Assembly (NCBI RefSeq): GCF_038025025.1
Contig: NW_027117344.1
Span: forward strand, 62,001 to 126,000
Direction: 5' to 3'
DNA from: Phyllosticta citribraziliensis
Taxonomy: Eukaryota
Length of the DNA stretch: 64,000 bases
A program made the translations under genes and the position numbers. Below, one piece after another: positions 5,851 through 26,112 of this stretch; positions within the stretch are counted from its first letter, which is position 1, and each line of letters begins with the position of its first letter. The notes beneath the pieces are model-generated. The model made no database searches. It was not told the DNA's origin and worked only from the letters and a program-made list of their open reading frames with translations.

Positions 5851-7738
5851 GCTTTTCTTCCATCGCCGAAATGTGGAAACACATCGGCAAGCATTCTCCA
5901 GCCTCCATCGAACTTGAGAAGTGCAAAACAGGCCGTCATCGTCGCATATTCTAGAAGTAGGCCATTTCCTGCCGACATGGGCGACCGATCCTACCACTTG
6001 CATCAGCATCGACATGGTGCACCCATCCAACAGCACCTTTGCTTGATGGCGAGCGTCGGCGGCTCTCCCTTGTACCAAGATGAAGAAGCCGCCATCCGAT
6101 CTTTCACGACATGGAGTCATTGCAACTGAGCTTAACCTCATAGCCACCGTGCATTTATCTGCTGACGTTGAGAAAGGTACGCAGAGAGGAGAGACAAGCG
6201 TCCATTGCTGTGCATTTCAACATGGTTGAGACGGAGCTACGGAGTCATTCGAGAAGAGCGCATGAAAGTGACTGCATAGATATACGCACGTTTGTATATA
6301 CATGGATGGGAATAGGGACATGAACATATTGTTGTAGTATATCTCTCATAGCTGCTCCTCCTACGTATATTACAGCGCATGCAGTGGGCTTCTGCTACAT
6401 AAACAATAGAAAGCATCGCAGTGTGCACACCATCTTCTCCCTTTCGCTTTCCTGATCAACATATTCTTTCCTTTCTCTCCCGTTCATCCTCCTCCTTGCA
6501 CTTCCCCATCCACCAATGCCTCATCTAATGATTGACCCCTTGCGTTGCGTTGCGTCGCCTCGACACCTACCGCTTCGCCTCTTCTCACCCGTGACCGCGC
6601 ACGCGAGCACGTCTCCTTACCTCGCTACTCCATGTCCATCAAAATCAGCCATTGTTTATTTACGCAGCGCGTCTCCATTAGCGGGCAGGAGGCCTCACAA
6701 AGGCAGGCGGAGAGAAAGGGATAGAGGCGCGAGAGGAAAGGAAGGGGGTGGGTGAGGTTACTGCGCCTGCTGCTTTTCTACAAATACAGGTTAATTCGAC
6801 ACAGAGGATCAATTATCTTCATTGTGAACAATGAACAAATGTTTGTTTAGTTTGTATCTGGATTGGGTACGGTACCCGCCACCACTCGTGCTCCTGTGAC
6901 TGACCCCTCGATGCGCCGCGCCCCGCCACCACTGCGCTATACTGCGCCACCAACGCCAATGATAACAACAACAAAAACAGTAGATGGCCCAACGGAGAAT
7001 CAGACCAAAAACAAATAAATAAACGGAAGGATGGTAAATGGGCAGGTGGCAAGACAGAGCCCACAGCCCGGTGTGACGCTAGAACGCCACTTACCTATGC
7101 AAAGAGAGCGAGCAAAGGAGAGAGAAAGAGCGCACCCAAGGAGGAGTATTATGAGAAAAGCGGAAATAGATTGGTTTGAAAAGAGGATTTCCAGACGTCT
7201 GCACAAGGAGAGGTAGATAGATGGATAGATGGATGCGAAGGTTGTAGTAGTGTCGTTGAGCTAATGCACATGTCTTTCTGTCTGTATAACTCCTGCAAAA
7301 CATCGTTGTTGATGATGATGATGACGACGCTAGCTACGAAGCAGACGAGCAGACGACAAGGCGCAAGACGAAGCAAACTACGGCAATAGACAGCGCGCCA
7401 GATGCTCAATGCAACAACGTATGACAGACCAGCAAGCCAAGGCGAGATGCGATAAAGTGAGTTAGAAAGAATTGCGCGAGCAGCGACGATGTAGTCATTG
7501 TGAGACTGGAGAGAAAGAAGCAAGGCAAGGCAAAGCAACAAGACGATAACGACCAACAAAGGGAATTATGCAGTATGGATGTGAGTTTGTGGATTGATGC
7601 ATGGATGCAAGGTGATTGATCAAGGACGCCGAGCGCTCGCTATACAGGTACCAATGGGTGGGCCAGGGAGTCTAGTCGATGCCAATTAAGGATGGTGGTC
7701 GAATGTACAGACAGTCAGCTGGCTGGTAGGAGACGACA

Positions 7739-10309
7739 TCATGCCTTCAGCCTCCGCTCCTCGCACCGGACGCAAACCGGGTCTTTGGTCGCGCCACGGA
7801 GAAAGTAGCGGCCGTCGTCGAATGGGGCAGAGCACTCCTATACGAGGTCAGCGGATGTTGGTTGGATTCGAGAGAGAACATACCGTGCAGACGAAGCAGT
7901 CCGGATGCCACTCGGCGCCCAGAGCCTTGAGCACCGTGTCGGTGACGGGCTTGCGGCACTTTTTGCACTTGGTCGAGTAGCGATTGGTGTGGCAGTCGAC
8001 GCACCAAGCGTAGCCGTCCTTTTCGACAAACGGGGTCGACGAATCAAAAGGCTATTAACGTCAGCACAACTCTCACATCGAAAGGAAAAACTCACGTCTC
8101 CACATTGCGCGCAGAAAAAGTGCCCAACATGCCACTCGGCCCCGCACGCCACAACCACCTCGCCCTCAATTGGCGTCTTGCAGCTCTTGCACCGCGGGCT
8201 GAACATTTCGTGGTAGTCGAGATGACAGTAGAACCGCAGCCCCGCATCTCCATCCTCCTCCGCGCTCGGCCACTCGACGGGCACGTCGTAGCCATCCATC
8301 CGCGCCTCGATGCGCTCCACACGCTCGGCACGCTTGGCATCTGGCTCCGGGTAAAAGGCTACACATTCGAGCGCCTCGCCGCAGTGGTAGCAAAGGAAGC
8401 ATTGGGGGTGAAAGCGAGCGCCGGCCGCGCTGACAATGCGGCCAGCAATGGGCTGGGAGCACGCTTCGCAGAGGGCTGTCGTTCGCACGCTGGTTGGGGT
8501 GCGGTGGACTGGAGCGGTGTTGGCGTGGCGGGGGAGGGGGCGACCCTTGGCGGTGGCGGGGTTCGGCAGGGGGCGAGAACTCGAGGAGGCGTTGATGGTC
8601 GGAAGTGGCCGTTGGGCAGGTTTGTCGCTGGTGACGTTGACGACTTGGGTTGGAGAGTCGTCGGGGAGGTTAATGGTTGGGAGCGGCCGTCGGGCAGGCT
8701 GATCGTCGGTGACGTTGATTATTGGCGTCGAAGGAGAGTCGGAGACATTAATCGATGGAATGGGAGATTCGTCGGGAAAATTGATTACAGGAATAGTTTT
8801 GGAGAAGGGAACGTCAGGCATGTTGATCGTAGGCACCACTGGTGCAGAAATAGACTTGGTCGGGCTCGGAGGATAAGCCTTTGGCTCCACAGGCTCAGGA
8901 AGTTTTCCCTCTTTGAGTTCAATCTCTTTGGGCTTGTAGTCTTTTTGAAAGCTGACAATAGGCCTGCCCGGACTATCGCTGACCATGCTGGGAGTTGGAA
9001 GCTTGGAGCTGCGGTCCTTGAGCCTCATGCTGGTTGCTGCTCGAATGTCGTCTCCGCGAATTTCTTTGCCATCTTTTGGTTCCTCGACAGGCGCTTCATT
9101 TTCCGACTTGGGCGGAGGAGTCGCGGCAGGTGATTCTTCGTTGGACGTGTATCCCGCATTGCGCGACTGCGAGGGCGGGTTGCGATGGATCTCGAAGCGA
9201 TCCCACAGCTTCCGTTGATCACTCATTGGTGGATCGGTGTTGCTGCGTCCAAGATTGTCCCTGGCCCTAGAAAAGGGGTTTCTCCGGGTGTGGGTTGGAA
9301 GTTTCGACGGCTTTTCGTCCTTCGACGAAACCTCTTCTGGCTCCTCGTAAATCTTGTCGTTGGGATTCTTGAATAGGCTCCCACTCGTCTTTCTTCGCGA
9401 ACCACTGCTGGTGCGCCGTCTCGTCGGAGGCGGTATGTTGAAGGAGACGTGGCCCTTGGAAATCGACCCGTAGCTCTTCTTGGACTCTCGAGGCGGTTCG
9501 GGCTGGGGTTCTGGTTCTGGGATCTTCTGGCTCTTGACGGAAGACGACTTTGATCCGCCGCTACTTATCCTACTGTCACCGCTGGAATGATGCGATGCCG
9601 TGTCATAGCTCTGGGCTCGTGCGTGGCTGCCCTTGCGCAAGTGGGCCGTGTAGGGATATGGAACATTGGGGTTTTGGTGTTTCCAAACGAGCTCGGCAGC
9701 CTCGTCGCGAGCGTCGTCGTAGACCTGTTGCTCATCCATGTCCTCGAGGGCACGGCGCAGCGAGTGAGCCTCTTGGCGCTCCATCCAACGCATGCCGCTT
9801 TCCCTGTAAGATGCCTTTTCCGTTGTAGAGCGAGACGAGCGGACCGACATGGCGGACGACGCCCTCTCAATTGTGGCGGGATTGGGTTCGATGCACGAGT
9901 TGCGGGCGGCATCGTCCTTGGGGTCGCGGGCGAGCGGACGGCCCAAACTCGAGGCAGCGCGATGAAAGGGATTCCGACGAGTGGCAGAGTTGAGCGACAT
10001 GTCGCGATGTGAGAGGGCGCTCTGGCAGCGGGCGGGTTGCAAAGAGGACGAGCTGGGGACGGGGCTGGGGTTGGACTGGTCGCGCAGCGAGGTGGCTGGG
10101 AGAGGCCGCCGACCGACAGCGACAGCGACAGCGACAGGGACGGGGCGTGCAGGGCGGTTGGAGCGAATGTCGCGCAGATAGCTGCCTGCATGAAATCAGC
10201 AGACGAAATCGCAGTCGATCAAGATTCACTCACCGACCTGCTCCTTGGACATGTACGTCGGGCCCGGGATGGCGCTGCCCTTGTCTTTGGAGCGGGCGCG
10301 GTGCAGCAT
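7739..10309 (-). CDS. LIM-domain (paxillin-like) protein, Pro-rich N-terminus, C-terminal LIM zinc fingers; 4 exons
   Basis: Exon 1 MLHRARSKD...YMSKEQV spliced to GSYLRDIRSNRP; LIM motifs CEAC..FHPQCFLCYHC, CKSC..WHVGHFFCAQC; last exon ECSAPFDDGRYF..CVRCEERRLKA*. Confidence 0.85.
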
Positions 10310-11000
10310 GATGACGGCGAGCCTGAGCCTGAGCCTTGGCCGGAATGCTCAGTCTCAGTAATTATAGCGAGCGAATGGTAGGAATGCAAAGGAGAGGAGG
10401 ATGAAATGTATGTATGACTACGGGCGCCAAGATGAGAGGATGATGGTGTTGTGGTAGGGGTCGCTCGAGCAACGCCAACACAAGCTCGACGTGTCCGCCG
10501 GCCCGGCCCTTGACCTTGTCGCAGCCGCAGGGCTGACTATCACACTCATCGTCCAAGATGACTTGTTGCGTCCTTGCGTTTGCTCCACTGTTGCTGCTGT
10601 CAGGAGGCGGTGTCGTTTGTCAAATGCCGCTGCAAGGTACGGGGACCAGTCTGGCGTCGCTCAGACGAACCGTGGGACGCTGCCCCTGGATAGATAACAC
10701 ACATCCCTACCCCTAGGGCTCGACAGCGTTCCCCGGATTTGCCTCGACCACTTGCGTCACTGATCATCTCTTCCGTATTCGTTCCGACGACCGCCTTCGC
10801 TTGCGGACGACCAGTGGGGCCCATGCGATCTCCCCGCCGTCACGGTAAAGACGGCACTCCTCCCCACGCTCAAAATTGGCGGCCAAGTGCTGGACCCCGT
10901 CAGACTTGACATCCACCATCCGACAAGATGACTAAAGACTCCCACTCCTGGCTCGGCCAGCTCACCATGGCCTCCTCTTCGCAACGGCCCTCTGTCAGTC

Positions 11001-12493
11001 ATGGCCGCCCGTCAAGAAAAGCCTGCCGAGGCCACTATCGCTCCGTCTGAAGTCCCATCACTTCCTTCGAATCACTCCAACAATGCCGATCCGCCTGAAT
11101 CAGTTGTCGAGCCAGTTCAAGAACCACCCAATGGAGGCTACGGTTGGATCTGCTGCATAGCCACTTTCTGGATAAACGCACATACGTGGGGAATCAACAG
11201 CGTCAGTTTTCATCACTTTCGCCCAACACTGCTAACTCTCTTCAGAGTTATGGCATCTTCCTCGCCCACTACCTGAGGCAAAATACTTTTCCTGGGGCCA
11301 CGCGCCTCGCCTTTGCCCTCGTCGGCGGCCTATCCATCTCGCAGGCTTTGTTCGTCTCTCCCCTCGCCACCGCGACCACCCGGCGCTTTGGCACGCGCGT
11401 GACGCTTCTTGTTGGCGTCTTCTTCGAGACCTTGGCTCTGATTTGCGCCTCGTTTGCGAGTCAGATATGGCACCTATTCTTGACTCAAGGGGTGTGCTTT
11501 GGCTGGGGCATGGGATTTCTCTTCGTGGGCAGCGTCGGCGTCGTGCCGCAGTGGTTCACTACGCGACGCAGCTTCGCCAACGGCATTGCAGCATCGGGAT
11601 CAGGGGTGGGCGGGCTGACGTATTCGCTGGCGACCAACACCATGATTGAGCGCATCGGGCTGGGCTGGGCGTTTCGCGTCTTGGGCATCTGCGCGTTCTC
11701 GGTCAACACCGTCTGCGCGCTGGTCATCAAGGACCGCAACAAGCACATTGGCAGCTCGCAGCTGGCCTTTGACTACCGCCTGTTCAAGCGGCCCGAGTTT
11801 CTGCTGCTCCTGGCTTTTGGCTTTCTCAGCATGCTCGGCTACATTGTGCTCCTCTTCTCCCTCCCCAACTACGCCACGTCAATCGGTCTCTCCGCGCACC
11901 AGGGCTCCGTCGTCGGCGCCATGCTCAACCTGGGACAGGCGCTGGGCCGCTCGCCCATCGGATACTTTAGTGATGTTATTGGCCGTCTCAACATGGCTGC
12001 CAGTATGACGCTACTCGTCGCCGTCTTTTCGTTTGCCATTTGGATCCCGGCAAAGAGCTACGGCGTGCTACTTCTTTTCGCGCTTCTCTGTGGCACCGTC
12101 GCCGGTACGTATTGGGCCGTCGTCGCCCCCGTCACCACCGAAGCTGTCGGCCTGGCCACACTGCCTGCTGCCCTCTCCATCACCTGGCTTGTACTCGTCC
12201 TGCCCACCACCTTTTCCGAAGCCATCGCTCTACAAATCACCGCTTCCAACGGCGGCAATTACCTCGGCGCTCAGCTCTTTACCGCATTCATGTACCTCGG
12301 TGCAGCCGCCGTGATGTGGATGTTGCGCGCGTGGAAGATTGGTCAACTGGAACGAACTGCTACAGCCGGGGACAACCGGATCGAAGCGGTAGACCCTGTG
12401 ACTGAGCAGCCAAAAAGTCTGGAGAAGAATGGCAAAGTGCTGAAGCCTGGGCGGAGCTTCGTCGAGAGGTTGTATGCGCGAGCAAGAGTGTAG
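11001..12493 (+). CDS. MFS monocarboxylate-porter family transporter (Mch-like); intron 11202-11245
   Basis: PPNGGYGW, spliced TWGINS|SYGIFL, PQWFTTRRSFANGIAASGSG, multiple TM segments. Confidence 0.9.
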
Positions 12494-13970
12494 CGATCTC
12501 TGCATCGACAGGCGTTGGTATGTGGGTACGGCATAGCATTTGCACATATTGCATCTCGGTAAATAAAATACAGCGTGTTTATACACAGCACAAAGGACCT
12601 ACTTCATTCAAACTCCGAATTGCATCTCTTCAAATGCTAGTCAGCGAAAAGCGTTCGAGAAATCACATCCTACTCAAAAAAGTCTCCTCCGAAACATCCT
12701 CACCATCCCCCTGTCCTACACTCATCCTGGTGCTTATGTTGAGCACCAATGAGATTCATTGTTGATCAACATCAAGTGGTCGTCAAGAACAAAGGGAGGA
12801 CAGCAAGTCCGAGAGCGACGCGCGACAGGCTCTCCCGAAAGAAAAAAAGAAAAAAGTAAAACAGAAGTGCGTCATGTGGGACCACGGCGCCGCAAAGACC
12901 AACCAGTTTCTGTGGTGAGTTGATCTTCGTCCCCCTTTCAAAGCTGCGTGTTGAGTGATGAGTGAGAGAACAAGCAGAATGAGCGGAGCTTTTATACCCT
13001 CCCTACCCTTGACTGGGAGCAGCTGGCCACGATCACAAGCTGCTAGGCACCTGCTTCTTCCAGGCAGCAGACCATGTGCTAGCTCAGCCTGACTGACGCG
13101 GCGCTGGAGCCCCGGCATGTGTGAAAAAGGAGTCAGCTGCTGACGGATGCAGAGGTATAAAAGCTTTCCCTTGCCGGTGCTCTCAATCTTTGTACCGCAC
13201 CATGCGAGTTCTGGGTCCACAAGGAAGAAATCCAAATGACCACTGACTGTGCGCTTGCCTGTCGCCCCGGAGATTCCGGACCAAAGTTGTGCTACTTGGG
13301 TTGAGAAGCCATTCCCGACGAGAAAGACATGCAAGAAAGATTCTTCGGTCGTGCACTGCAACGAGACGCAATGGTGGTGGTTATGATTGAGTGTGTAATG
13401 ACAGCGAGCGCCACTTAAAGTTGAGAAAGACTGGAGACATTTCACTGCGCGAGAAATGAATAGTGGAAGAGGATTCTGGCCCGGGGCAGCCAAAAAAGTC
13501 GTACACAACCCGAGATATGACACAAGAGTGTCCGAATTAGCACCCCGTTCTTTTCTCTTGTAACACGGGTGGACTGTTGCCATGACCCTTGCAATGCAAA
13601 CAGTGGGAATGTATTTATAATTCATCGATAGCCTTAGCCGTAGCCGTAGCGGCCGGGCGGCGGAGTTCCTTTCACGAGCTCAGGGGCATCAGGTTCTGGC
13701 GGATACTACATCACACGTCACGCTCAACTGGCCGCAGCCCATGGCGCGATTTCACGGTGCAAGAATGCAAGACTCAGCATCTCGTACCACTGCCATCGTC
13801 CTTCAAGCAGCGACCAAGTCCACCCAATTCTCCCCTCATCCGCCCGTCCCCATCGCGCCACCCCTTACTCACTACAACCACGGAACAAGGCCTCGACACG
13901 GACACCCCGCTACCACTCAAAAGCCCCGCCATCAAAATAAAGGCAAAAAGGAAAAGGGCAAAAGGAGCTC

Positions 13971-14053
13971 CAGATCGGCCAGGACTTGAACCTGGGACTT
14001 GCCGTGGATATGATGTTTAACCATGACATGCGTTACCACTACGCCACCGATCC
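13971..14053 (-). tRNA. Atypical tRNA-like gene (isotype undetermined; possibly pseudo-tRNA)
   Basis: Acceptor GGATCGG/CCGATCT, D-arm GCGT-AGTGGTA-ACGC (A box), T-arm CCAGG-TTCAAGT-CCTGG (B box), downstream T-tracts; anticodon arm non-canonical. Confidence 0.75.
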
Positions 14054-15485
14054 ATAAACGTTTTTGTGGTGCGCTGGATAGTGGGGTAGGGGTTGCGACG
14101 GATTATATACTGATTTTTGGCTTCGCTGCTTTGTGGGGTCTGCCTTTTGTCTGCACACAGAAGAAGCCAATATATTTTGCTGCGGATTCGCTGCGGAAAT
14201 TTTCGAGAAACTTTCTCGCCCTGTGACACTTGATACACAAAACGCTCTGAAGCATGTGCAAGTTGCCGTCAGACTACCGTGCGAGACTCGTCGTCTCGTG
14301 AGCGCGCCTGGATGCGCCCGCGGAGTATAAATTGCGTCGTCTTTTTAGCAGCGAGGAAGTACGGTACGACTCCCTCCAAGCATATCGACAACAGCAACTC
14401 AAATATGAGCAATTGACTCTTTGCTGGCATGGTGAATTGCAGAATCTCACTTCATGTTCTTCTTTGCGCTGTTGGGATCTTATTTCTACAGTCTCCGGCA
14501 AAAGGCGCGTAAATCTAAAGATCCTTCAACAGCGATGATGCTGAATCGCACCACCAATCGTCCACGATGAGACCGATTTTCGCCCAAAGACAGCAAAAAT
14601 GCTGCGACGCTCTTGGTCTCAGGGGCTTTTGGCGCGAGAGTAAATCGAAAGAAGAAAACCAAAGACAGACAAGTCACTTCTTCTCTTTCCAGATTGTTGC
14701 ACACCACAAGTCCGTCGTCTTCTCCCTATGATAAGGCCGCAGACTCGCGGGAGGGATGTCGCTTGGAAGAGTGAGAAATGGTCTGGGTTTATATACCCCT
14801 GAGATCTTGAAACTCCGCATGTGCCGACATGTCAGCGAGCTTCTGATAGATCACAAGCACAACGCTCGGAGCTATATGTCCCATGACGCGGTCCTAGCTC
14901 TAGTAGCTCTTGTACTTCTCTTCCGTTATAAAAGCAGGTCCGTCACTTCCACTCAACTCATCAACAACGCAATTAAATCGGCAGAAATACCCAAAAAAGG
15001 ACTAGATGACTGTCTCTCTTCCTTTAGGGCATGCTTCAATCGTCTTTCCTTTTCACTTTGTCCTGCGGTGGTTCCGTGACGCTCTCCAAGACCGACTGTT
15101 TTTGATTTGTCAAACTTGGCTTTTGCTTTCCTTTGAACGCTCACCATCATCATTAAATGACGGAGTCAATACCCAATTGCTTAAGATGAAGTCCGCCGCC
15201 GTCATCATTCAAGGGGGTTCAGTGCTTGGTTTATTCTGGATCTCATGCCACAGCGTCCAGCGGCTATGTAGGAAACCCAACAAAAAACAAACAGTTTTGG
15301 AGGTGTCTATGTCCTTTATTCTTGAGGATGGGATGCACCTCACTGATGATGGAACGGGGAAAGCTGAATCGAAGGAGAGAGACGGTTTTATACCTCGCGG
15401 AGCCGTCAAAAAAGCCCGGGCCAAGCCTCAAGAATCAGCTGCCAGCTCAGTAGAGCGAAAACGGAAGCATTTGAGTGTGCGCTAC

Positions 15486-15487
15486 GG

Positions 15488-15523
<36 letters not shown>

Positions 15524-15524
15524 C
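15486..15524 (+). repeat. (GGCA)n tetranucleotide microsatellite inside one bidirectional promoter module
   Basis: About 9-10 tandem GGCA units read directly. Confidence 0.9.
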
Positions 15525-18500
15525 GTCTTTCTTGGTATATAAAATGGTCGCTTCTGCCCTCCCCAGGGCTCATCATTGAAGATGCACCTTTCGTCAAGAG
15601 CGACATTCCTCGGCAACTGATACTGCTGTCCCGATCGAGCTCGAGAAAATTACTTTGTTTCTGTCCGCGTCCCCTGAGAGACTTTGAGTCCGCAGCTAGT
15701 GAATTTGATCTGGGCGACCGAAATCAAATTGCTCTCCATCTTTGACTTATGGTGCTGAGTAAAGTCAGGGGTAGATTGCAATGATCCGCAATATTATCAC
15801 TTTTCCAATGCGTTCCTTAAAAGTTGAAACGCTGGCAACGGCGGCGAAACAGTGATCGAATCATCTGGGATTTGTCTATGTGAACAACTCAGCCAAACAG
15901 TTGACCAGGTTTTGAAGAGGTGACTTTTCGCACTCAAAGCGAACTTGTTTGGCAATGAGTGAGCAACCCCAGAGTTGAGAGCGCTTTTATACGCGGACGA
16001 AGTAGGTCACAAGCAAGAGAGCTGCAAGAGGAATCAGATGTCAGGAGCCAAAAGGGGCAGGGTAGGTCACACCGACTTGTCTCTGACGCCGAAGCCGCAG
16101 CTCGCTGCGCTTGTGATCGTGGCCCTAGGGGGTATAAAACCCGGTCCTTTCGCTCTGTCAAAGGAGTCGTCAGACAAGCTCCAGCGCATCTTCAGCCGCA
16201 ACAAATGGTAGCTGAAAGACTGTGCTTGTTTCCGATGTCAAAGAGCATAGCACTTTGTTTGGCTGTTTCCGGCTGCGGAAATGACGGACTTTGGCCTTCT
16301 TTTGAAGAGCATAGGATTTTCAGGCGGCCTAGATTTCCTGTTTATCATTATTCCTTCTTGGAGGTCTTCATCATCAGAACAAAGAGCCTGTGACCTCAAT
16401 GGCTCAACAAAGAGAAAAGAAACAACCCCACAAGAAAGCAAGCCAACCACCCACCCCAGCAAACCAAAAGAAAAAAGACAAAGTACGCTGAAAATCAAGC
16501 CAAGCACTCCACCCAGTAGGGTCCTCTCGGACATCTCTTTCAGCAAGGTCGCGGACTGCACTGCGAAGGAAATGCCAGAGCTCAGAAGAATGCGCGTCTT
16601 ATACTCCGCCGCTGCACCTGCTCACGTGCCAAACAATGCCTCTCGACAAATGAGGGGAATTCTCGAGCACCAAGTCCCAGGAAGCACGTGCGTCGCTGTG
16701 CACATGGCCCCCTTACACGTCAACATGTCGAGTGCACTGGCGATATCGCTCGCCCACGGATGCACGACGCACTACAAAAGCCGCCGCGCCGCCCACAGTT
16801 CTGTCGTTAGAAAGCTTCTTCTGACAAGCGGAGAAGAACCTTCCAGCCTACCACTCTACTTGTGCGTTTGCGGTGAGTGGGTGGCACAGTGTGGTGATGG
16901 TTGGGTGTTGGGTTGCGGGGTTTTGGCGAGATGTGGGTAGGATGTAGGAATGGTGGTGAGGGATGAGAAATGTTGATGGGGATGAGGAATATGGTGTTGT
17001 GATGGTGAGGGATGGAAGTGCGGAGAAATGTAGAAGCGTTGTGTTGTCAGTAAGCGGCGGATTCAGGGGTACCCGGTGGACCGAGCGACAGAGAGGCTTC
17101 CCAGTACTTTATCTCGTTCGACCCAAGCACCAGAGTCTCATCTTCTTTTGTTGACAGCCATGGCCCATAAAGCGCAAGAACAGCGAGCGAGAAGCGCGCT
17201 CTTTATACCCCCACCTCCGCCTTTGCCGCCGCCTCCGGCGTCACTGACCTCGCCAGCCTCGGCGCACATGAGTTCCACTGCACGCCCGCATCTACCCAGC
17301 GCGCTTGTGACAGCTCTCTAGTTCTAGGAGTATAAAACCGTCACTCGACCCTCGCTTTTGACTCCTACACACCACCGAGTCCGCAGCAAGCAAACGCAGC
17401 AAGACGAAGGACCACTGCTTACTGTTGCGATGCGTTTTTTGCGCAATGAATGTTACTTGTGGCGTCTCTGCGTGGGACATGAGGACATGGCTGCGTTTGC
17501 ATCTTAAGAGGTGATGGAGATGTTGTGTATGGTGCTGCGGTATGTCGGCGTCGCGTGATGGCGAGGAAAAGGGACGAGAATTCCGTTCAGGGGTAAGTGA
17601 TTCCAGAGAGAAGTATTTCTCCGCAACAAATTGTCCGCAGCTCGACAACGAAGAAGAAAAATAATAGAAAGATGATGATGCGATGCAACGACATGGCATA
17701 GCGATGTAAATCAACCAGCTTTTAAGTCGGTTCAGCGAGCTCTCAGGCACAACGTACGGACAAAAACAACAAGAACGAAGCGAAGCAAAGCAAAGTCAGT
17801 CGTTTACTTCGCCGAAGGTCTCCCCCACCAGTGTAATGGAGACAACACTTCAGAGCCTGCAGGATTGCAGCTCGCTTGTCCACCACAATCGCTGGAGGAA
17901 AGAGAGAGATTTTATACCCTCGCAACGGAACCACATGCTAAAAAGCTCTGACCACCAGCAAGCCAGCACCACCTGCTTGTAGCCCAGGCTTGTGACTCGA
18001 ATGCTGCACAGCCACGGCAGGCAACATCTAGATTCTAGACAGCAAGCTCGTGACGTCTGACAACTGACCCCATCAGCATGTGGCTGGCCCCAGCTTCTGC
18101 CCATGCTTCTCCCGCTCTCACTCCCTAGGGTATAAAACCTCCGCTCTCCCTCCCCTTTCACAGCGCGACAAGCAGGTGGAGGCGAGCTGAGCAGCCCTCA
18201 GATCTTCCAATCGAACTTGCCGCTCCATCTGTCACCATGTCACTTTCTGCCGGAACGGATTTCTCAGTTTCAACACACTTTTCCGCTCGTTTGTCCGCTC
18301 CGTCAGGGGCCGCGTAGAGCAGAGGAGAAGACGTGTTATCCCAAGCAGTTGTGAATGAGAGCGGCAGAGTGAAGTAATGCAGCGTCGCAGCGCCACGGCA
18401 CCACGCTGCAAGTCCGCGTATCTGGGAAGCGCGAGACTGCCAATGGGGGAGTTGAGATACGCCGTGGCGCGCTCCAAACAGTGGACGAGGAATGCGACCA

Positions 18501-19692
18501 CGCGGCACAGCGCACAAGTGGCCCAACGGCATAGCGGCGGTGCAGGCGTCTTGCTTTGCTCTGCGGAGGAGTGGGATGAGGAGGAAGAAGGAGGAGGGGA
18601 AAGGTGCGAGAGGCGCGGGTTTTATACCGTACCTCTCTCTGCTCTGTCAAACCACATGACCGACATTACTGCCAGCCAGCACCGCCAACCACTCCAACCC
18701 ACTCCACTCCACTCCACTCCGCCCCGACGCTCTCCGACTCTCCGACCAAAAAAAGACAAGAACCAGGCCCACCCCACATGTTCCCGGCCGGCGGCCGGCT
18801 AGCTAGATAGGTTGGTCAATGTAGTGTTGAATCAGGTACCGTACACGCCGGGTTAGCCAGCGAAACAGACGACAGGCGCTAACCGCAAGAGGCAATATCG
18901 CGGCGAAGGGGAACGACGAAGCCGAACCGAAGCGAACGCCAGGAAAGCGAATCAAGGCAAATGCAATGCAAGTCGGCGAATCATCGCAAATGCCGCGGCT
19001 ATTATGTGCGCGTACGCATGTACTGCTACAAGCCAGACAGACAGGGGGGCCGGAGACTCCAGGATGAAGCTTAGCAAGAGTGCGAGAAGGAAAGAGAAAA
19101 GGAAACACGTAAGTTAGACAAGGTGTGTATGTATAGATAGAGGTATGCATGTCATGCAGCAAGAGTCGTATATGTACAGCTCTAGAGTCTATGATGCAGA
19201 CGGTTTCTAGGTGGATAGGTAGGTGAGGAGAAGGGGCCGAGGAAAGATGAGAAAGCCAACGCAGGCAGCCGGAGAGAGAGAAAGCGTCCATCCATGCCGC
19301 GCGCATTCGACCAACAGGGCAGGGGGTCGATCTTCAGACACAAGGAGATGACCGCGACCCTTAGTTTGATCCCCTGCGCGCTCGGCGACGAGATGCGGGT
19401 GCTCAGGTAATGCAAGTCGGAAGCTGTCCAGGCAGTCGAGGGGAGGTAGGAAGGTAGGAAAGCGGTCTGCCAACCGCACGTCGCACACGGGGTGAGCGTC
19501 GGTCAGCCCAGCAGGAAAGCCTTCATGCGCCCTCATCTCCGTGCCGTGCGGCGCCCCCGAAAAGCATGCCAGCCGCACGGCAGCCGTTGCTTTTTCGTGT
19601 GCAACGCCTCGTCGCCCCCCAAGAATAGCTCTCGACGGCCCGTGCTGGACGGCAGAAGAAGTGGGCAGATGCAAATACGGGCCGCACGCGCT

Positions 19693-20758
19693 CTACAGTT
19701 CCTTTTTCGTGGCGGAGCCGTTGAGCTGGGAGCGCTGCTCGCGCCGCACGACGAGCGGCATGGTGAAGAAGTTGGGCCAGTGCAGCTCGTAGTCGTCCTG
19801 CTTGTCGTTCAGGCAGTGTCTGAGCCAGATGCCCCAGACAATGTAAAAGTAGGCGCCGGTGCCCGTCATGAGGTGCCTAGCAAAGTTTCGTGTCAGCACG
19901 GCATGGGAAAAAGAAGCAAAGCCGCCAGCAAGCTGTTATTGGACGAGATTACTCACCACCAACCATGGCCTTCGAGAAGGAGGCCCCACGGCAGACCAAT
20001 GTCTCTGCGCCACCGCCGCAGGTTGCCGCAGAACTCGTTGTCTAGGGTCCAGATGGCGAAGCCGCCCAGAAAGATGCCCAACCCACAAGCAACCATTTTC
20101 CACATTGTGTGGAGGATGTGGAGATCGCGCCTGTCGACGCGCAGCTTCTCGGAGCTGTCGTCCGGCTGCTCCCTGGCCTTGAGCGTCGGCCGCAGGCGCA
20201 CCTCCATGACGTACATGCTCCGGAAGAGGACAACGGCGGTCAACAAAGCGTACATGTTTTGGTGAAAGGCCGGGTCTTGGAGGTAGTGGTAGTAGCCGGT
20301 GATGAAGGCGGCGAGGGCGACGAGGAAGAGGCCGAGCACCACGGCGTAGCGGCGCGACCTGCCGTAGGAAAAGGTGGCGTAAAACATGAGGCAGGTGGTG
20401 TAGATCATGGACAGCTCGTCGACCAGCTGCATGGGGTACTTGAGGGTTGCGTGGAAGAGGAACGAGCCGGTGCCGACCAACAGGTAGCCGGCAAAAGTAA
20501 CGAGGAAGATGCGGTCATGGTCGTTGGCCAGGCAGTTGGCGATGCCCTTGGCGGCCAGGTACATGAACAGGACGTTGGTCAGGGTGTTGACAATCTCGGC
20601 GCTGTAGATGGTGGCGTAGTAATCCTGCAGAGGTGAGCGGTGGGCGGGGATTGGGGCATTGAGCATACCTCTTCGCACCAATTGAGGGTCGAGGTGACGG
20701 GAGACCAGTAGCCGTCACCAGCAGGTGGGTAGGGCACGGAAGGGAGCCATTCGGGCAT
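19693..20758 (-). CDS. Alkaline (phyto)ceramidase, Ypc1/Ydc1 family; 3 exons
   Basis: Exon 1 MPEWLP..GYWSPVTSTLNWCEE; GSFLFHATL, QLVDELSM, LLEGHGW|WHLMTG (CREST-family His motifs). Confidence 0.92.
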
Positions 20759-21285
20759 GGTGGGAGAGGGGGAGGGAGGGATGGAGATGGAGGATCAGCC
20801 CACGCAGGATGGTGTTTTGCTGTGGGCGGACAGAGCGGGATACGAGGGAGGGGAGGTGAGGTGGTTAGGCGGCGTGGGCAGTGCGGAGCACATTTGTCAT
20901 GGCGGGGGAGCGACGAGCATTGCGTCAGAGGAGAAGGCTGGGCCTGGGGTGGACGGTGATGGAGACAATTTTTGATTTTCTCCCCTTCGTTTCGTTTCGA
21001 GCGATAGGGCGATAGAGCGATAGAGAGGCAGAGGCCAAGGCGAAACAGCGCGCGGGAGCTAACTCTTAGACAGAGTGTCGCTGTTGGGCTGACGAATCAC
21101 ATGGATGCGCTCTTGGGCTCCAGCTGATGATCTGCGCCCCGGGCCGAACGTAAATCCATCCTCCGCTCCGCTCCGCTCCGATTCCCCATTTGGTCACCCG
21201 GACAGGACAGACAGGACCCTCATCAAGTGACACCCGACTACTACACCCAACTCCGCTGCACCCAACCTCCTCGCCTCAATCCACC

Positions 21286-21763
21286 ATGGCCATTCCAAAC
21301 GAGGCCCTGGCCAAGGTGCGTCACCCATTTGCGTCGCCATGACCCGTGTTGATGCCCGCAGCTCCTCCAAGAAATCGAGCAAAAGGCGACCTTCTCGCAG
21401 CAGCAGATTGGCCTCGTCAAGGCCCAGATCACGGCAAAGGCCCGCGAGCAGCGCATGCTTCAGCTGACCACCACCGAGGTCGACTCGTTGCCCACCGACA
21501 CTAGGGTCTACGAGGGCGTCGGCAAGATGTAAGCACCCACTTTTCTCCATTGGCCAGGTCACACCCACTCACTCACTCACTCGCGCCTCTCCAGGTTCGT
21601 CCTGACCCCCACCCATGAGGTCAAGCAGCGGCTGGCAAACGAGGGCGAGGAGCTCAAGTCGGACACGACCAACTTGGAAAAGAAGCTGCACTACCTGGAG
21701 ACGACGCTCAAAAATAGCCGCGACAACTTTGAGCAGCTCCTCCAAGCCGGCTCCAGGTCCTGA
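21286..21763 (+). CDS. PFD1: Prefoldin subunit 1; 3 exons
   Basis: Spliced MAIPNEALAK|LLQEIEQK...RVYEGVGKM|FVLTP...LEKKLHYLETT, prefoldin beta-type pattern; missed by the ORF track. Confidence 0.88.
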
Positions 21764-22355
21764 AAAAGCAGGCTTCCGCCGACCTGAGTGCCACCAAGAC
21801 AGCCAGCCAGCCAGCCATTCTAGCCCCCATCTCTAGCCCGCGCCACGCCCAACGGTAGCAATAATATCACCACCAACAATCCAATCACTTGCTCCCAAAT
21901 CCGCCAACGGCCAAACCGACCGCTGCTTACCCCCCAAAATGACGACGCCAGAGAGCCGCGCGCATGTACCTCCTGTCTGGCCACACAGAGCGCACCGCAC
22001 CACGGCAATCTGTCGCATCCATCTGACGTGCAGCCCTGAATGCCTCGAGCTCTCCACCCCTGTCTCGCAGCTCCAGGCAGCTTCAGCCCTCCTGCACCAT
22101 GATTAAAATCAGCCTGCACTGCGTGATGCCCTCGTCCTCAGTCATCAGCCTCCCTGTCTTTATCACTCGTCCTCGTCACGCTCTTTGCCCTGCCTGTCCG
22201 GTGACCGGTTCCTGTTCCTCTCCAGCCATCCAAACAAGACCCAAACTATTTGCCTCTTCCCGTTCCTGCCACAACCTTCGTCGACCTCTAGTGCTGACGC
22301 TTGCCGCTGTCTTTTAACCCGTCTCCGCACCCTTGTCGCCAACAACACCGCAACC

Positions 22356-24018
22356 ATGGCCCACCACTTTGATCTAGAGTACGACTCACCAGGCCCAGGC
22401 TTTGGCGCCCGCCATGTCGCCCCAGGCCGCTTTCGAAACGCCCCTCGCAACGACTTTCTCTCCCCAAACGTCCGGCACGAGTACCACGTTTCTACCGGAG
22501 GGGGTATACGCCGCAGCCGCAGCACCGGCACCAGACCAGTCCCAAACATCCAAATCTTCAACCACCTCGAGCAGGATGCGCACCCGCGCTTCGACGCCAC
22601 GGCCAACGCTCGCGCCTCGCCGCCCCGCACTCCCCGTGGTCGCGTCATGGAGGACGAGTGGGCCGAACACGCCCATCGCAGTCCTAGCAGAGGCCGCCTA
22701 TTCCACGACCACCTCCATCATCACGACCACTTTCGATTCGGCGAGTCGCCCGAGAATCGCGCAACCCAGGTCGCTCTTCAAGACCAGCGCATCCGCGACC
22801 TCGAAGAAAGGCTGCGGCGTGAGAATGAAGAAGAGCTTCTCCGGATGAAGTACGACAACGAGCTCTTGCGCGATAAGCGGGAGCGCGAGGAAGAGGACGA
22901 GCTCATTAGGAGACGCATCGAACTCCAGATGCTCAAGGACAAGGTCAAGCGGGAAGAGGAAGAGTCGCGAATCCGTCACGAGGAAGAAAGACTGAAAGAC
23001 AAGTACGAGAGGCAACGTTGCGAGGCGGATCGCAAGCGTCAGGAGCACGAACGTGAGCTTAAGCAAATCAAGGAGGACGCAATCCGAAAGGAAAAGGAGC
23101 GCATCGAAAAGGAGGACGCGGCGCAAAAGGCGGCGGCCGAAGAGTGGGAGCGCCGCAAAGACGCAGCCAAGAAGAAGGAGGACGAGAAGAGGGCCAGGGC
23201 ACTGCTGGAGTGGCAGATGGAGGAAAAGAAGAAGCAAGAGGCAGCCGCCGAGGCTGCAAAGAAGGCTGCCGAGGAAAAGAAGCGCCTGATTGAAGACCAC
23301 GAGCGACAAGTCGCCCTTCAGGCCAAGGAAGAGGCCGAAAAGAAGCAGCGCATCATCGACCAGTGGCACAAGGACAAGAAGGAAGCGGCAGAAAAGGCCA
23401 AGGCAGCTGAAGAGGCACTCAAAGCCAAAATGGCCAAGGATGCGGCAGAGGCAGCAGAAAAAGCCAAGAAGGAGGAGGAAGAGTACGAACGCAAGCGGCT
23501 GGCCAAGATTGAAAAGGAGAAGAAGGAGAAGCAGGAAGCAGACGAGAAGTTTGAAAAGGAGATGCACGAGCGTCTGCACAAGCTGGGCCTTTCCGAAGAC
23601 CAGATCCAGCACATGATCAAGGGAGAAAAGGCCAAAAACACGCACCTGACGATTGTCCCCGCACACAGGAACGGGGTGCCGACGTACATCAAGATTCACA
23701 AGAACCACATCGAGGTGGCGACGTTGACGTACTTTGGGCTGCCGTGGGAGTGGGATAGGGTGAGTCTCCTGTTTTCTCGAACAAGACGTCTGCTAACCTT
23801 TCCAGTCCGACAACGACTACATCATCATCCTCAAGGAAATGGACCACCGCGAGACGGAGGTGCTGTTTGAGCACACCAAGGCGCTGCGGCGCCGCACGAC
23901 GCTCACCATCGAGGAGCGGCCGCGGGCGTCGGGCAAGCCGGAGCTGATGTGGGTGAGGCGGCGCGGGCGCAGCAAGAGCGCCGTCCGCAACATTCACATC
24001 AAGGACACGTGGTTTTAG
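22356..24018 (+). CDS. Hypothetical charged coiled-coil protein with a fungal conserved C-terminal motif; intron ~23760-23806
   Basis: Long E/K/R-rich helix; C-terminal YIKIHKNHIEVATLTYFGLPWEWDR|SDNDYIIILKEM..LFEHTKALR after splicing. Confidence 0.75.
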
Positions 24019-24477
24019 AGTGATGGTTTGGAGCTGGATGGTGTTCTTCTTCTCTTCATTCGTGGGGATGGAACTTGGGTAGACTGACACTAGGGGTTCT
24101 AATGGCGTTGATGTGGTTTTGATTTTCTTACTATACCACTGTTGAATCAGAATGTTCTGACTGGAATACTTGTGGCTGCTCCATAAGCGACATGCATGTC
24201 TTGGTTCCGTTACTGATTGCATGTGTCTGGATTGGGGACGATGGCCCGCGGGAGTGGGTGGACCTGAGGGATTGATTGACGGGCGCGCACGGACGGGGCC
24301 CGAACATGACGCAGACGACTGCGGGCGGCCGGGCTTATCCGACGTCAACTGGTTGGCCCGCGACGCCCAAACACCAAACATTCTTCTACCGCTTCGCTCT
24401 CTGCCCGCCATGTCAGCTTAAACCTCTCGCCCACCTTCATTTCCTTATTTCTGCTCCCAATTGATGCCAGAACGGTC

Positions 24478-25701
24478 ATGTCCGATGGCAGCCGCTCGCG
24501 CTCGTCGTCTTCCTGTAAGTCGATTCCGCCCGTACATGAAGAGAGAAAAAAAGAAAAAAGCCCACATGTACCTACATAGCTTCAGTCCCGCTGCACGAGC
24601 ACCGACCGCATTTCCCCACTCCCCCATACATACACATCGCTCGACTAACACCACATCTCCGCAGTCCACTTCCTCGCAGGTCTGACGTCGGGCCTCACGT
24701 CGGCCATCCTGCTCCAGCCCGCCGACCTGCTCAAAACGCGCGTGCAGCAGTCGCGCGCCACGACGCTGCGCTCGACGCTGCGCGCCATCGCCGCCGGCCC
24801 GCATCCCATCCGCTCGCTCTGGCGCGGCACGGTGCCGTCGGCGCTGCGGACGGGCTTCGGCTCCGCGCTGTACTTCACGACGCTGAATGCGCTGCGGACG
24901 CGCGTGGCGGCGGCCGCGGCGGCGGGCAGGCTGCAGAACAGCGTCGCCAACACCACGGTCAAGAATGGCGGCACGCGGCCAAACGGCGGGGGCGGCGGTG
25001 GGAGCAGCTCGTCCTCGTCCTCATCCTCCCTCCCCAGGCTCAGCGCAACAGCCAACCTGCTGACCGGCGCCCTCGCCCGCGCCGGCGCCGGCTTCGTCAT
25101 GATGCCCATCACGGTGCTCAAGGTGCGGTTCGAGAGCAGCCTGTACGCGTACACTTCGCTCGCGTCGGCGGGGCTGGACATTGCGCGGCGCGAAGGGCTG
25201 CGCGGCTTCTTTGCCGGCTTTGGCGCCACGGCGGTGCGCGACGCGCCGTATGCCGGGCTGTACGTCCTGTTCTATGAGGAGTGCAAGCGGCGGCTGGGCG
25301 CGTTTGCTGCGCCCTCATCTTCTCCACCATCGAGTCCTTCGAACACGGACGCCGCCGCCCCCTCCCCCTCACCGACGCCCCTGCCCATCCCCGCCTCCAC
25401 GGCCGCCTCCGTCCACTTCGTCTCCGCCATCCTGGCCGCCGGCCTCGGCACCGCGCTCACCAACCCGTTCGACGCCATCAAGACGCGGCTGCAGCTGCTG
25501 CCGGCGCGCTACAAGCACATGGGGCAGGCGGCGCGGCTGATGCTGCGCGAGGAGGGCGTGCGCAGCCTGTTCGACGGGCTGGCGCTGCGCATGGCGCGCA
25601 AGGCCGTCAGCAGCGCGCTGGCGTGGACGCTGTATGAGGAGTTTGTTCGGCGCGCGGAGAGGGCGTGGAGGGTTGCTGAGGGGGAGAGGGAGGGGTTGTA
25701 G
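24478..25701 (+). CDS. HEM25: Mitochondrial carrier, glycine transporter Hem25/SLC25A38-like; intron ~24515-24664
   Basis: [22 protein letters not shown]; three PxD/T-xxK-xR carrier signatures ([24 protein letters not shown]); [19 protein letters not shown]. Confidence 0.88.
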
Positions 25702-26112
25702 GAGGGGCGGTTTCTGTGGGATGGGATGGGATGGGATGGGCGGACGGATTGCTATGGCGCTGGATGGACGGCGTTGGTGGGCTCTTCTCTTTCCTCAAAA
25801 ATAGCTGGACGGCGTCTGAGAGCAGAACGCGAGGCATAGAGACGTATACCACTCAGAAATACATGTACATCATTCACTCTTTCGGGATTGGCATTCAAGC
25901 TGCGTGCGAAGGATGATTGATTGACCCGTGATGGAGACGATGCGGGAGAGGGAAGGAAAGTCTATGTATGGATGCATGGAGGGTGGGTATACGTGGGACG
26001 ACCTATGAACCAAGAAGAAGAAGAGGAAGAAGAAGAGGAAGAAGAAAGAGCAAGAGATGCAGAGAGCAGAGAGGCGCACCATAGCTCAAGACGACCAGAG
26101 CCAGAAGCCAGC

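Follow-up and report, generated by a model that had tools for sequence, protein, structure and literature searches.

Convergent transcription is tied to DNA methylation in Neurospora crassa, where it induces methylation at disiRNA loci (DLDM), as described in the part of Dang et al. (2013; PMC3764098) available to us. The locus studied here resembles the disiRNA loci portrayed there in its facing Pol II promoters, its gene-rich region and a non-coding output expected from sense/antisense overlap. However, those loci are described as ordinary pairs of genes or promoters that converge or overlap, whereas eight near-identical geometries stand here in tandem with no gene. Fungal bidirectional Pol II promoters, e.g. 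those of histone-gene pairs (excerpts of PMC6900853), also have two outward TATA-type core promoters in one short region of nucleosome-free size, but the examples in those excerpts are single and serve two protein genes, while eight chained modules drive non-coding DNA in the array. Opposing promoters as a putative source of dsRNA without dedicated hairpins may also be likened to the sense/antisense dsRNA pairs of budding yeast; in the accessible part of that report (PMC11912912) these involve mRNAs and lncRNAs from ordinary genes at dispersed genomic sites, whereas the array is regular and gene-free. By analogy, the locus could further be compared with prokaryotic repeat-spacer arrays (CRISPR, integron cassette arrays), which have short, conserved, partly palindromic junctions and unique inserts of similar length. 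Unlike in those arrays, the conserved part, only about 11 nt long, is a TATA promoter of eukaryotic type followed by RNA ends, and nothing points to acquisition, to an associated enzyme gene or to inserts derived from elsewhere. A literature search found no description of a comparable promoter array, and the arrangement is apparently undescribed.

In the 64-kb window, i.e., the whole stretch of DNA analysed, TATAAA occurs 17 times when both strands are counted. Two copies lie at 12583 (-) and 43628 (+), and the other 15 fall within 12996-18626 in strictly alternating strand order (-,+). Together with two degenerate boxes (16604 and 16773) they make up 17 array elements, as the initial annotation had claimed for 5.6 kb of this DNA. 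The array lies within a 6.4-kb island flanked by the 3' ends of two genes, one for an MFS transporter and one for an alkaline ceramidase. Its repeat unit is a back-to-back promoter module with two outward GGTATAAAAS boxes 124-215 bp apart, except for module 2, in which the boxes are 707 bp apart with a tRNA gene between them. The facing promoters of adjacent modules are 434-585 bp apart across unique interiors, the cassettes. From the first T of one box to the first T of the next, the facing spacings are 463, 469, 465, 453, 471, 434, 585 and 495 bp, and the back-to-back spacings are 160, 707, 132, 146, 142, 169, 124 and 215 bp; the spacings listed earlier were reproduced within 6 bp, the offset being due to the anchor point. 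The modules and cassettes are as follows:

12989..13163: module 1, back-to-back, TATA(-) 12989-12996 and TATA(+) 13156-13163
13025..13040, minus strand: motif GCTTGTGATCGTGGCC of module 1, which also has CATGTG twice
13164..13611: cassette 1, unique non-coding interior, 463 bp box to box
13612..14333: module 2, TATAAATA(-) at 13619 and TATAAATT(+) at 14326, 707 bp, widened by the tRNA gene
13971..14053, minus strand: tRNA gene in module 2 (Rfam RF00005, 45.7 bits, E 1.9e-07)
14334..14787: cassette 2, 469 bp box to box
14788..14934: module 3, TATATAAA(-) at 14795 and TATAAAAG(+) at 14927, with motifs GCTTGTGATC (minus strand, to 14858) and GCACATGC
14935..15384: cassette 3, 465 bp, almost no RNA in X1 or X2 (RNA runs, see below)
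15385..15545: module 4, TATAAAAC(-) at 15392 and TATATAAAAT(+) at 15536/15538
15546..15983: cassette 4, 453 bp, almost no RNA in X1 or X2
15984..16140: module 5, TATAAAAG(-) at 15991 and TATAAAAC(+) at 16133
16141..16596: cassette 5, 471 bp, contains the orphan ORF 16241-16534(-) and part of 16281-16937(+)
16597..16780: module 6, degenerate boxes GTATAAGA(-) at 16604 and TACAAAAG(+) at 16773
16781..17199: cassette 6, 434 bp
17200..17338: module 7, TATAAAGA(-) at 17207 and TATAAAAC(+) at 17331, with motifs GCTTGTGAC at 17303 and GCACATGA at 17264
17339..17908: cassette 7, 585 bp
17909..18138: module 8, TATAAAAT(-) at 17916 and TATAAAAC(+) at 18131, with motifs GCTTGTGAC at 17988 and CCACATGC twice
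18139..18618: cassette 8, 495 bp, covered by X2 contig 17522-18708
18619..18626, minus strand: last box of the array, TATAAAAC, crossed by the same contig

The gene in module 2, initially called tRNA-like, is a good tRNA by both Rfam and ARAGORN, which calls it tRNA-Thr (13970-14054). Module 4 also holds a (CAGG)n microsatellite at about 15480-15534 (repeat family D2).

The architecture of the array is non-random. TATAAA has a density of 2.63/kb in the array; the remaining 58.3 kb of the window have 0.034/kb, and control DNA (41 fungal metagenome loci, 305,901 bases) has 0.239/kb. First-order Markov simulations of a 5.7-kb stretch (n = 500) yielded 0.76 copies on average and never more than 4, and mononucleotide shuffles (n = 2000) yielded 2.15 on average and never more than 8. 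Chains of alternating TATAAA with gaps of 100-800 bp were sought by the same rule in the window and the controls. The longest chain in the window has 10 boxes and is interrupted only at the two degenerate ones; the longest in the 41 control loci has 5 (locus L028). The latter was rejected as a comparable array, being irregular, with its first box inside a ceramidase match and no promoter-like context. Comparably regular alternation, for which the initial annotation had proposed a check in shuffled or ordinary DNA, is therefore absent from the control DNA. Among relatives, 17 metagenome loci of at least 5 kb with a ceramidase 46-69% identical were all without the array.

The 17 promoter arms can be aligned only over the roughly 11 nt around the box, but the modules share further elements upstream. 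The motifs RTCACAAGC and SCACATGM are present in one or two copies in most modules. In the 1.7 kb of spacers, GCTTGTGA occurs six times and CACATG eight times, versus two and 29 times in 57 kb, and neither occurs in the cassettes. The 16-mer at 16109-16124 in module 5 is an exact inverted copy of 13025-13040 in module 1 (repeat pair I13), and one GCTTGTGAY stands 23-24 nt upstream of either box of module 5, which gives it a palindromic layout. Downstream of the boxes, the CT-rich tract reported initially was confirmed, with C 0.36, T 0.35 and A 0.12 at +15..+30. It is followed on the promoter's own strand by an A-rich segment (+60..+90) and by a T-rich, A-poor segment (+90..+160) with T5-T7 runs, in which T rises to 0.39 and A falls to 0.11 at +120..+150. 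In 14 of 16 half-cassettes, the own strand has more T than A. Because the same own-strand composition programme lies behind every promoter, a cassette appears as the mirror image of two short units that meet in its middle.

RNA data consisted of assembled contigs from two studies (runs X1 and X2), which carry no strand, 3' ends or levels; introns of the flanking genes are skipped in both, so both represent RNA. The locus is transcribed, and the RNA ends are consistent with starts at three promoters:

12948..12949, minus strand: sharp RNA end taken to be a transcription start, 47-48 nt downstream of TATA(-)12996
13209, plus strand: left end of X1 contig 13209-13898, 53 nt downstream of TATA(+)13156, a probable transcription start
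16177, plus strand: sharp RNA end taken to be a transcription start, 44 nt downstream of TATA(+)16133

The X1 contig 11246-12948 runs on into 23 adapter letters and the X2 contig 11904-12949 stops at the same place, while 23 adapter letters precede the start of X1 contig 16177-19875. These ends, 44-53 nt downstream of their boxes, support the original view of the boxes as Pol II core promoters. They concern 3 of the 17 promoters, no two of which face each other within one cassette. Both sides of module 1 are active, with divergent RNA ends (12948 leftward, 13209 rightward) 261 bp apart and no X1 contig in the gap 12949-13208, as in a bidirectional promoter. Module 5 differs from known bidirectional promoters in that only its + side is active in X1, with a depth of about 5 to the left of 16177 versus 844 to the right; TATA(-)15991 and its partner TATA(+)16133 both have a consensus box and GCTTGTGAY, but the former is weaker by a factor of about one hundred. 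Five of the eight cassettes are covered by RNA. The X1 contigs in the array are 13209-13898, which covers cassette 1 (13164..13611), and 16177-19875, which includes module 6 (16597..16780); the X2 contig is 17522-18708, and no X2 contig lies at 17144-17521 around module 7. Module 8 (17909..18138) is crossed by contigs of both runs. On cassettes 3-4 (14608-15875) the X1 mean word depth is 5.1-12.9 versus 250-850 on the other cassettes, and the X2 depth is 0. Under the conditions sampled, many of the boxes may not be in use. Facing boxes are also read through, since 13209-13898 spans 13619 and X2 contig 17522-18708 spans 18626. Two earlier proposals thus find no support in X1 and X2: co-regulation, given the near silence of cassettes 3-4 and the difference of about two orders of magnitude between the sides of module 5, and confinement of RNA to the cassettes, given its passage through facing boxes.

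On balance, we favour reading the locus as eight back-to-back Pol II core-promoter modules that form a lineage-restricted array, are engaged in convergent non-coding transcription and make no protein. RNA would start at about +44 to +53 behind each promoter, and the products would be non-coding Pol II transcripts, capped and a few hundred nucleotides long, which may run into the facing unit and at times through it. The locus would then act via the act or the product of convergent non-coding transcription and not via a protein; sense/antisense pairing, polymerase collision and transcription-induced chromatin marks are candidate modes. The RNA-supported promoters and the non-coding tests together indicate that the promoters are real and their products non-coding. 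As the box-to-box distance is constant and the boxes are conserved while the interiors are unrelated, we argue that geometry rather than sequence may be under selection, a conclusion drawn from one genome because no array-bearing relative was found. The constancy of length rests on five of the eight cassettes (453-471 bp), the other three being 434, 495 and 585 bp. Alternatively, a single promoter could produce all of 16177-18956 as one long transcript while the inner boxes stay silent.

By all tests run, the cassettes are non-coding. GC3 is 0.40-0.66 in 10 candidate ORFs versus 0.64-0.84 in 6 real genes, no codon periodicity was detected along 12.5-19.2 kb, and none of 101 six-frame ORFs (at least 40 aa) reached the Pfam cut-off. 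Composition, Pfam and homology thus agree with the initial statement that no recognisable protein gene is present, yet three ORFs of the stretch are deposited as proteins, each a singleton cluster without homologues among 5.8 billion and 1.84 billion proteins. They include:

16241..16534, minus strand: orphan ORF, 98 aa, deposited, GC3 0.44, two hydrophobic helices, maximum KD 2.34
16281..16937, plus strand: orphan ORF, 219 aa, deposited, GC3 0.55, partly in cassette 5

These deposits and the two helices of the 98-aa ORF would fit a cluster of orphan micro-protein genes, in which each promoter drives a very small, fast-evolving ORF, e.g. for a hydrophobic or secreted peptide. The T-rich, A-poor tract would then encode a hydrophobic N-terminus after an A-rich leader; A-rich followed by T-rich is indeed the look of a fungal leader with a signal peptide or membrane helix, and the first ATG lies at +70..+128 in 11 of 17 promoters. 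We consider this improbable, because, besides the missing GC3 excess, periodicity, homologues and Pfam family, an ATG-ORF of at least 25 aa starts at +50..+135 in only 8 of 17 promoters, which is about chance by a hand estimate. Moreover, TATA(-)14795 and TATA(-)17916 have no ATG for 340 and 217 nt, and the long ORFs cross TATA boxes and the RNA-free module 1. Least probable is that the units are small RNA genes. These could be Pol III genes that have an upstream TATA and make RNAs of 75-120 nt ending at T runs, or snoRNA/snRNA-like genes that are transcribed independently and would be missed by ordinary RNA-seq. T5-T7 runs at +104..+172 are indeed found in 7 of 17 units versus 3.3 in shuffles (P = 0.02) and runs of at least six T in 5 of 17 versus 1.2 (P = 0.001), and their position is tied to the own box even in the longer cassette 7 (+104 and +150). 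However, a T5 run is missing in 10 of 17 units. TATA-dependent Pol III genes start 25-30 nt from the box, not at the 44-53 nt of the RNA ends seen here, and a CT-rich tract before the start, as in this array, is a Pol II feature of fungal promoters. At E ≤ 1, Rfam yielded nothing beyond the tRNA and two chance-level matches, and the 17 predicted transcripts gave no fold signal (z-scores from -1.23 to +1.93, mean about -0.05).

The dsRNA library put forward in the initial annotation is a minority hypothesis that we hold to be rather unlikely. Both promoters of a cassette would have to fire in the same cells. Their complementary transcripts of about 300-370 nt would pair and either give rise to small RNAs on processing or cause methylation, as happens at disiRNA loci of Neurospora, and the array would serve as a collection of silencing triggers, each of them unique. 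In its favour are the consensus promoters that face each other, the non-coding and unique interiors of near-constant length, transcription at the locus and the Neurospora precedent (PMC3764098, in the part available), and the mirrored promoter-proximal programme would imply long-term use of both directions. If the two strands destroyed each other, this might also account for the scarcity of long RNA at steady state over cassettes 3-4. On the other hand, no candidate target was found, as the cassettes match nothing in the remaining 57 kb of the window, the 101 ORFs contain no Pfam or viral-type domain and the three deposited ORFs lack a homologue; readthrough of the facing boxes and the very unequal expression of back-to-back partners also count against it. 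A largely inert relic is a doubtful alternative. On this reading, copies of a strong bidirectional promoter arose in the distant past, the interiors have since drifted, and the few promoters still firing make by-product RNA that has no function. It would account for the supporting RNA end at only three promoters, the near silence of cassettes 3-4, the degenerate boxes 16604 and 16773 and the failure to find an array-bearing relative. But no RIP signature is present (TpA/ApT 0.63, (CpA+TpG)/(ApC+GpT) 1.35) that could explain a selective survival of A/T-only boxes. The interiors have diverged so far that not even purine/pyrimidine recoding reveals any similarity (mean in-register identity 0.255-0.307), yet TATAAA is kept in 15 of 17 boxes with G-rich and CT-rich flanks, the downstream programme in 14 of 16 halves and the length in five cassettes. 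Neutral decay should erase boxes and lengths along with the interiors, so their retention argues against a relic.

The hexamer TATAAA was found at 17 sites on both strands of the 64-kb window, and 15 of these lie at 12996-18626 in strict -,+ alternation, the two remaining sites being at 12583(-) and 43628(+). The single gap in the alternation is filled by two degenerate boxes:

16604, - strand, degenerate box GTATAAGA
16773, + strand, degenerate box TACAAAAG

The 17 alternating elements of the initial annotation were therefore recovered as 15 exact TATAAA sites and two degenerate boxes, and its spacings agree within 6 bp with the distances measured here from box to box. These are 463, 469, 465, 453, 471, 434, 585, and 495 bp between facing boxes, which enclose cassettes 1-8, and 160, 707, 132, 146, 142, 169, 124, and 215 bp between back-to-back boxes, which form modules 1-8. 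All window sites of GTATAWAA (12 of 12) and TATAAAA (11 of 11) fall within the array. The density of TATAAA is 2.63/kb in the array against 0.034/kb for the remaining 58.3 kb of the window; in 41 fungal metagenome loci (305,901 bases), which were used as ordinary-DNA controls only, it is 0.239/kb. In 500 first-order Markov simulations of the array stretch TATAAA occurred 0.76 times on average (maximum 4), and in 2000 shuffles 2.15 times (maximum 8). Among the 41 control loci the longest alternating chain comprised five boxes (locus L028). This chain is irregular and lacks a promoter-like context, and the ceramidase match contains the first of its boxes. Equally regular spacing in ordinary DNA, which according to the initial annotation would speak against its reading if common, was not found in the control loci. 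The array of consensus TATA promoters, arranged in eight bidirectional modules, is highly non-random and far beyond chance.

The array occupies an island of 6.4 kb, bounded by the 3' ends of two genes, with a G+C of 0.47-0.56 as opposed to about 0.60 in the flanks. The neighbouring genes are:

left of the MFS transporter gene, LIM-domain gene
frame 11099-12493, + strand, MFS transporter gene
about 19.2-21 kb, - strand, alkaline ceramidase gene

The rest of the window holds dense housekeeping genes, including GH31, a sugar transporter, a mitochondrial carrier, TRAPP subunits, a class II tRNA synthetase, a cyclin, ribosomal protein L2, VPS9-ankyrin, SGTA, and GH32. At 12836-12866, about 350 nt past the stop codon of the MFS gene, there is a purine-rich A tract (GAAAGAAAAAAAGAAAAAAGTAAAA); it falls within the leftward unit of TATA(-)12996, 85-110 nt from its start. 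The tract may serve MFS as its poly(A) signal region and thereby shield the promoter from incoming transcription.

When each of the 17 arms is read on its own strand and aligned, only about 11 nt prove conserved, GGTATAAAA(C/G)C. The composition around them is common to the promoters and mirrored in each cassette. A G-rich stretch (G 0.40) immediately precedes the box. Downstream, +15..+45 is rich in C and T, +60..+90 in A (A 0.38, T 0.13), and +90..+160 in T, with little A (T 0.31-0.39, A 0.11-0.15). Runs of at least six T were observed at +104..+141 in 5 of the 17 units, compared with 1.2 in shuffles (P=0.001), and runs of at least five T in 7 of 17, compared with 3.3 (P=0.02). From +90 to the cassette midpoint, the strand of the promoter carries more T than A in 14 of 16 half-cassettes (mean skew 0.22). 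In the longer cassette 7 the T runs stand at +104 and +150 from their own boxes, and since they keep this distance, the T-rich tract is part of the proximal promoter. The spacers between back-to-back boxes (1.7 kb) contain six copies of GCTTGTGA and eight of CACATG; the cassettes contain neither, and the other 57 kb contain two and 29, respectively. GCTTGTGAY is located 23-63 nt upstream of the box to which it points in five promoters, in module 5 on both sides. RTCACAAGC and SCACATGM may resemble the R-box, SRE, and E-box sites of transcription factors. Moreover, the 16-mer GCTTGTGATCGTGGCC recurs exactly and inverted in modules 1 and 5. The back-to-back layout, the common motifs, and the inverted 16-mer indicate that the natural unit is a roughly palindromic bidirectional promoter module, eight of which are chained. 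Module 2 is widened to its 707 bp by a gene:

13971-14053 (Rfam) or 13970-14054 (ARAGORN), - strand, tRNA gene inside module 2

ARAGORN assigned to it the anticodon GGT (Thr) and a length of 85 nt; an intron may be concealed in the gene. Very deep RNA contigs with several mismatches and insertions lie on this gene and presumably derive from other tRNA copies.

Transcription was followed over 7000-26000 in the contigs, which carry no strand, of four of the seven listed sequencing runs. Two runs, X1 and X2, skip introns of the flanking genes (GT..AG and CT..AC joints) and are therefore RNA, a status taken from these introns and not from the run records. An X1 contig covering 11246-12948 continues into 23 letters of sequencing adapter, another (16177-19875) is preceded by adapter, and a third covers 13209-13898; in X2 a contig ends at 12949. 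The end at 12948 is 48 nt downstream of TATA(-)12996 (47 nt for the X2 end), that at 16177 is 44 nt downstream of TATA(+)16133, and that at 13209 is 53 nt downstream of TATA(+)13156, each on the side to which the box points. RNA ends, two of them capped by adapter, thus lie behind three boxes, as in fungal-type Pol II TATA core promoters. An adapter assembled at a contig end marks an end common to enough fragments, as a fixed RNA terminus gives. Because of this type of terminus and the box upstream, we infer from the strandless contigs that the three ends are transcription starts.

In module 1 the RNA ends 12948 and 13209 diverge. The X1 depth of 235.2 in bin 12706-13339 is fully explained by the two flanking contigs, so that no X1 RNA contig covers 12949-13208, the picture that a bidirectional promoter should give. 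In bin 15876-16509 of X1, the contig 16177-19875 accounts for 443.5 of a depth of 446.1. RNA left of 16177 is therefore about 100 times lower, and TATA(-)15991 is nearly silent beside the active TATA(+)16133; only the + side of module 5 is active in X1. Likewise, the X2 depth in bin 17144-17777 is fully explained by contig 17522-18708, which leaves nothing over 17144-17521. Almost no RNA comes from cassettes 3 and 4 (14608-15875; depth 5-13 in X1 and 0 in X2). At the facing boxes 13619 and 18626 RNA passes through, and in X1 it also crosses modules 6-8. Altogether, the strandless RNA contigs extend over five of the eight cassettes and may represent one strand of a cassette or both. The stretch 16177-18956 may give one long RNA or many overlapping RNAs, the contigs being compatible with both. 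The locus is transcribed, with RNA ends fitting three promoters. An X2 contig also skips 67 nt at 16437-16505, with GC..AG ends, between two 25-nt direct repeats (depth 11, side 30), which could reflect a rare GC-AG intron in an RNA of the + strand, a deletion in the strain, or an artefact.

A cluster of orphan micro-protein genes was weighed as an alternative reading. Three ORFs of the stretch, each a singleton cluster, are deposited as proteins:

12786-13625, - strand, ORF of 280 aa
16241-16534, - strand, ORF of 98 aa
16281-16937, + strand, ORF of 219 aa

No homologue was found for any of them, two having been searched among 5.8 billion sequences and the third among 1.84 billion representatives. 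No codon periodicity was detected over 12.5-19.2 kb, GC3 was 0.40-0.66 in ten candidate ORFs against 0.64-0.84 in six real genes, and none of the 101 six-frame ORFs of at least 40 aa reached the Pfam cut-off. The absence of a recognisable protein gene, as first reported from the sequence, is upheld by the GC3, Pfam, and homologue results, which also argue against micro-proteins or any protein-coding cluster, and we consider micro-protein genes improbable. A stop-free frame of 298 codons, 12783-13679(-), extends through cassette 1, module 1, and a pair of TATA boxes. It shows neither codon bias nor a homologue, and by a rough calculation by hand (about 1e-3) its length exceeds chance expectation. 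The deposited 280-aa protein is the ATG form of this frame and probably a spurious gene model, since it spans two TATA boxes and the RNA-free module 1.

Over the array only the tRNA passed in Rfam, two other matches being far below the gathering score, and the folds of 17 predicted 200-nt transcripts were no better than shuffles (z -1.23 to +1.93, mean about -0.05). These results speak against known structured RNA families (snoRNA, snRNA, and others) besides the tRNA, and it is very improbable that the units are Pol III or other small-RNA genes. The interiors showed no similarity to one another (best local score 17 over 64 pairings), their in-register identity was 0.255-0.307, and purine/pyrimidine recoding gave a mean alignment z of 0.21. 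A tandem repeat, satellite, MITE, or solo-LTR array, as well as duplication remnants, were rejected because the interiors are not alignable and the 17 arms align only at the box. Copying from the neighbourhood was ruled out because the cassettes have no blastn match and no meaningful tblastx match in the other 57 kb of the window. RIP is indicated by TpA/ApT above about 0.89 and (CpA+TpG)/(ApC+GpT) below about 1.03. The values here, 0.63 and 1.35, are normal, and together with the dissimilarity of the recoded copies they exclude a RIP-mutated duplication, or RIP as the cause of the survival of the A/T boxes alone. A 10-bp WW signal of nucleosome positioning was also not detected (z -1.4 to +1.8). 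Besides the tRNA gene, the array contains no coding, repeat, or structured-RNA signal. An inert relic is, like the micro-proteins, improbable; the array is real and active.

The units appear to be short non-coding Pol II transcription units. Boxes, composition programme, and five almost equal lengths have been retained next to interiors that are unrelated; from this one genome, geometry rather than sequence therefore seems to be under selection. We hypothesize that the locus acts through convergent non-coding transcription, which could operate by dsRNA and small RNAs, by transcriptional interference, or by chromatin marking. The generator of dsRNA and small RNAs proposed in the initial annotation is rather unlikely. 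Its fuller form, which we put forward tentatively and regard as doubtful, would be a dedicated genome-encoded cassette library. Transcription from the two ends of each unique insert of about 370 nt would yield dsRNA, and this dsRNA would direct RNAi or chromatin silencing at matching targets elsewhere (own genes, transposons, mycoviruses). Such a library would be a eukaryotic "promoter-insert-promoter" counterpart, in repeat-spacer layout, of the laboratory RNAi vectors with opposing promoters.

TATA promoters, bidirectional promoters, and convergent non-coding transcription are textbook parts. Their assembly into a regular tandem array with unrelated interiors and conserved geometry is not, and a full-text literature search returned no description of such a regular array. 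Among the closest described systems are the convergent-transcription disiRNA/DLDM loci of Neurospora (PMC3764098), single bidirectional promoters (PMC6900853), and sense/antisense dsRNA pairs of yeast (PMC11912912); unlike the present locus, none of these is described as a regular gene-free array. The chance that the array is a categorically new thing is a minority one. If its geometry and not its sequence is under selection, it would provide a natural test bed for convergent transcription alone (dsRNA, polymerase collision, chromatin marks). To our knowledge, all studied convergent loci contain protein genes as confounders, of which the array would be free. If the cassettes match targets elsewhere, they would represent a new class of endogenous silencing locus. 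Moreover, fungal engineering could draw on the compact consensus promoters (TATA box, CT tract, start at +44..+53) as candidate short promoters, with measurement of activity as the first step.

The metagenome scan with the ceramidase exon gave the 41 fungal loci at 46-72% identity, and none of the 17 loci of at least 5 kb has anything like the array, these loci being too distant to judge conservation. The only gene order in common is that beyond the ceramidase, away from the array (L001, L002, L038). L035 has a LIM gene 3.6 kb downstream; it and L028 proved unrelated. Contigs at least 99% identical to the window made up 42 of 54 in X3 (surface metagenome) and 6 of 6 in X4 (other species label), so both are the same species at low depth and uninformative on conservation, and the X4 contig 16352-16694 was dropped as a conserved piece. 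A (CAGG)n microsatellite of about 55 bp (15480-15534) immediately precedes TATA(+)15538 and belongs to the module bordering both nearly silent cassettes. Short direct repeats of the CCACT/CTCCGA type occur at 18680-18735, just beyond the last box, where the X2 contig 17522-18708 ends. Introns confirmed by RNA joints lie at 7836-8096, 10184-10233, 11201-11246, 19875-19956, and 20623-20668; RNA-confirmed introns are very short, mostly 44-48 nt, which is a feature of the genome and not of the array.
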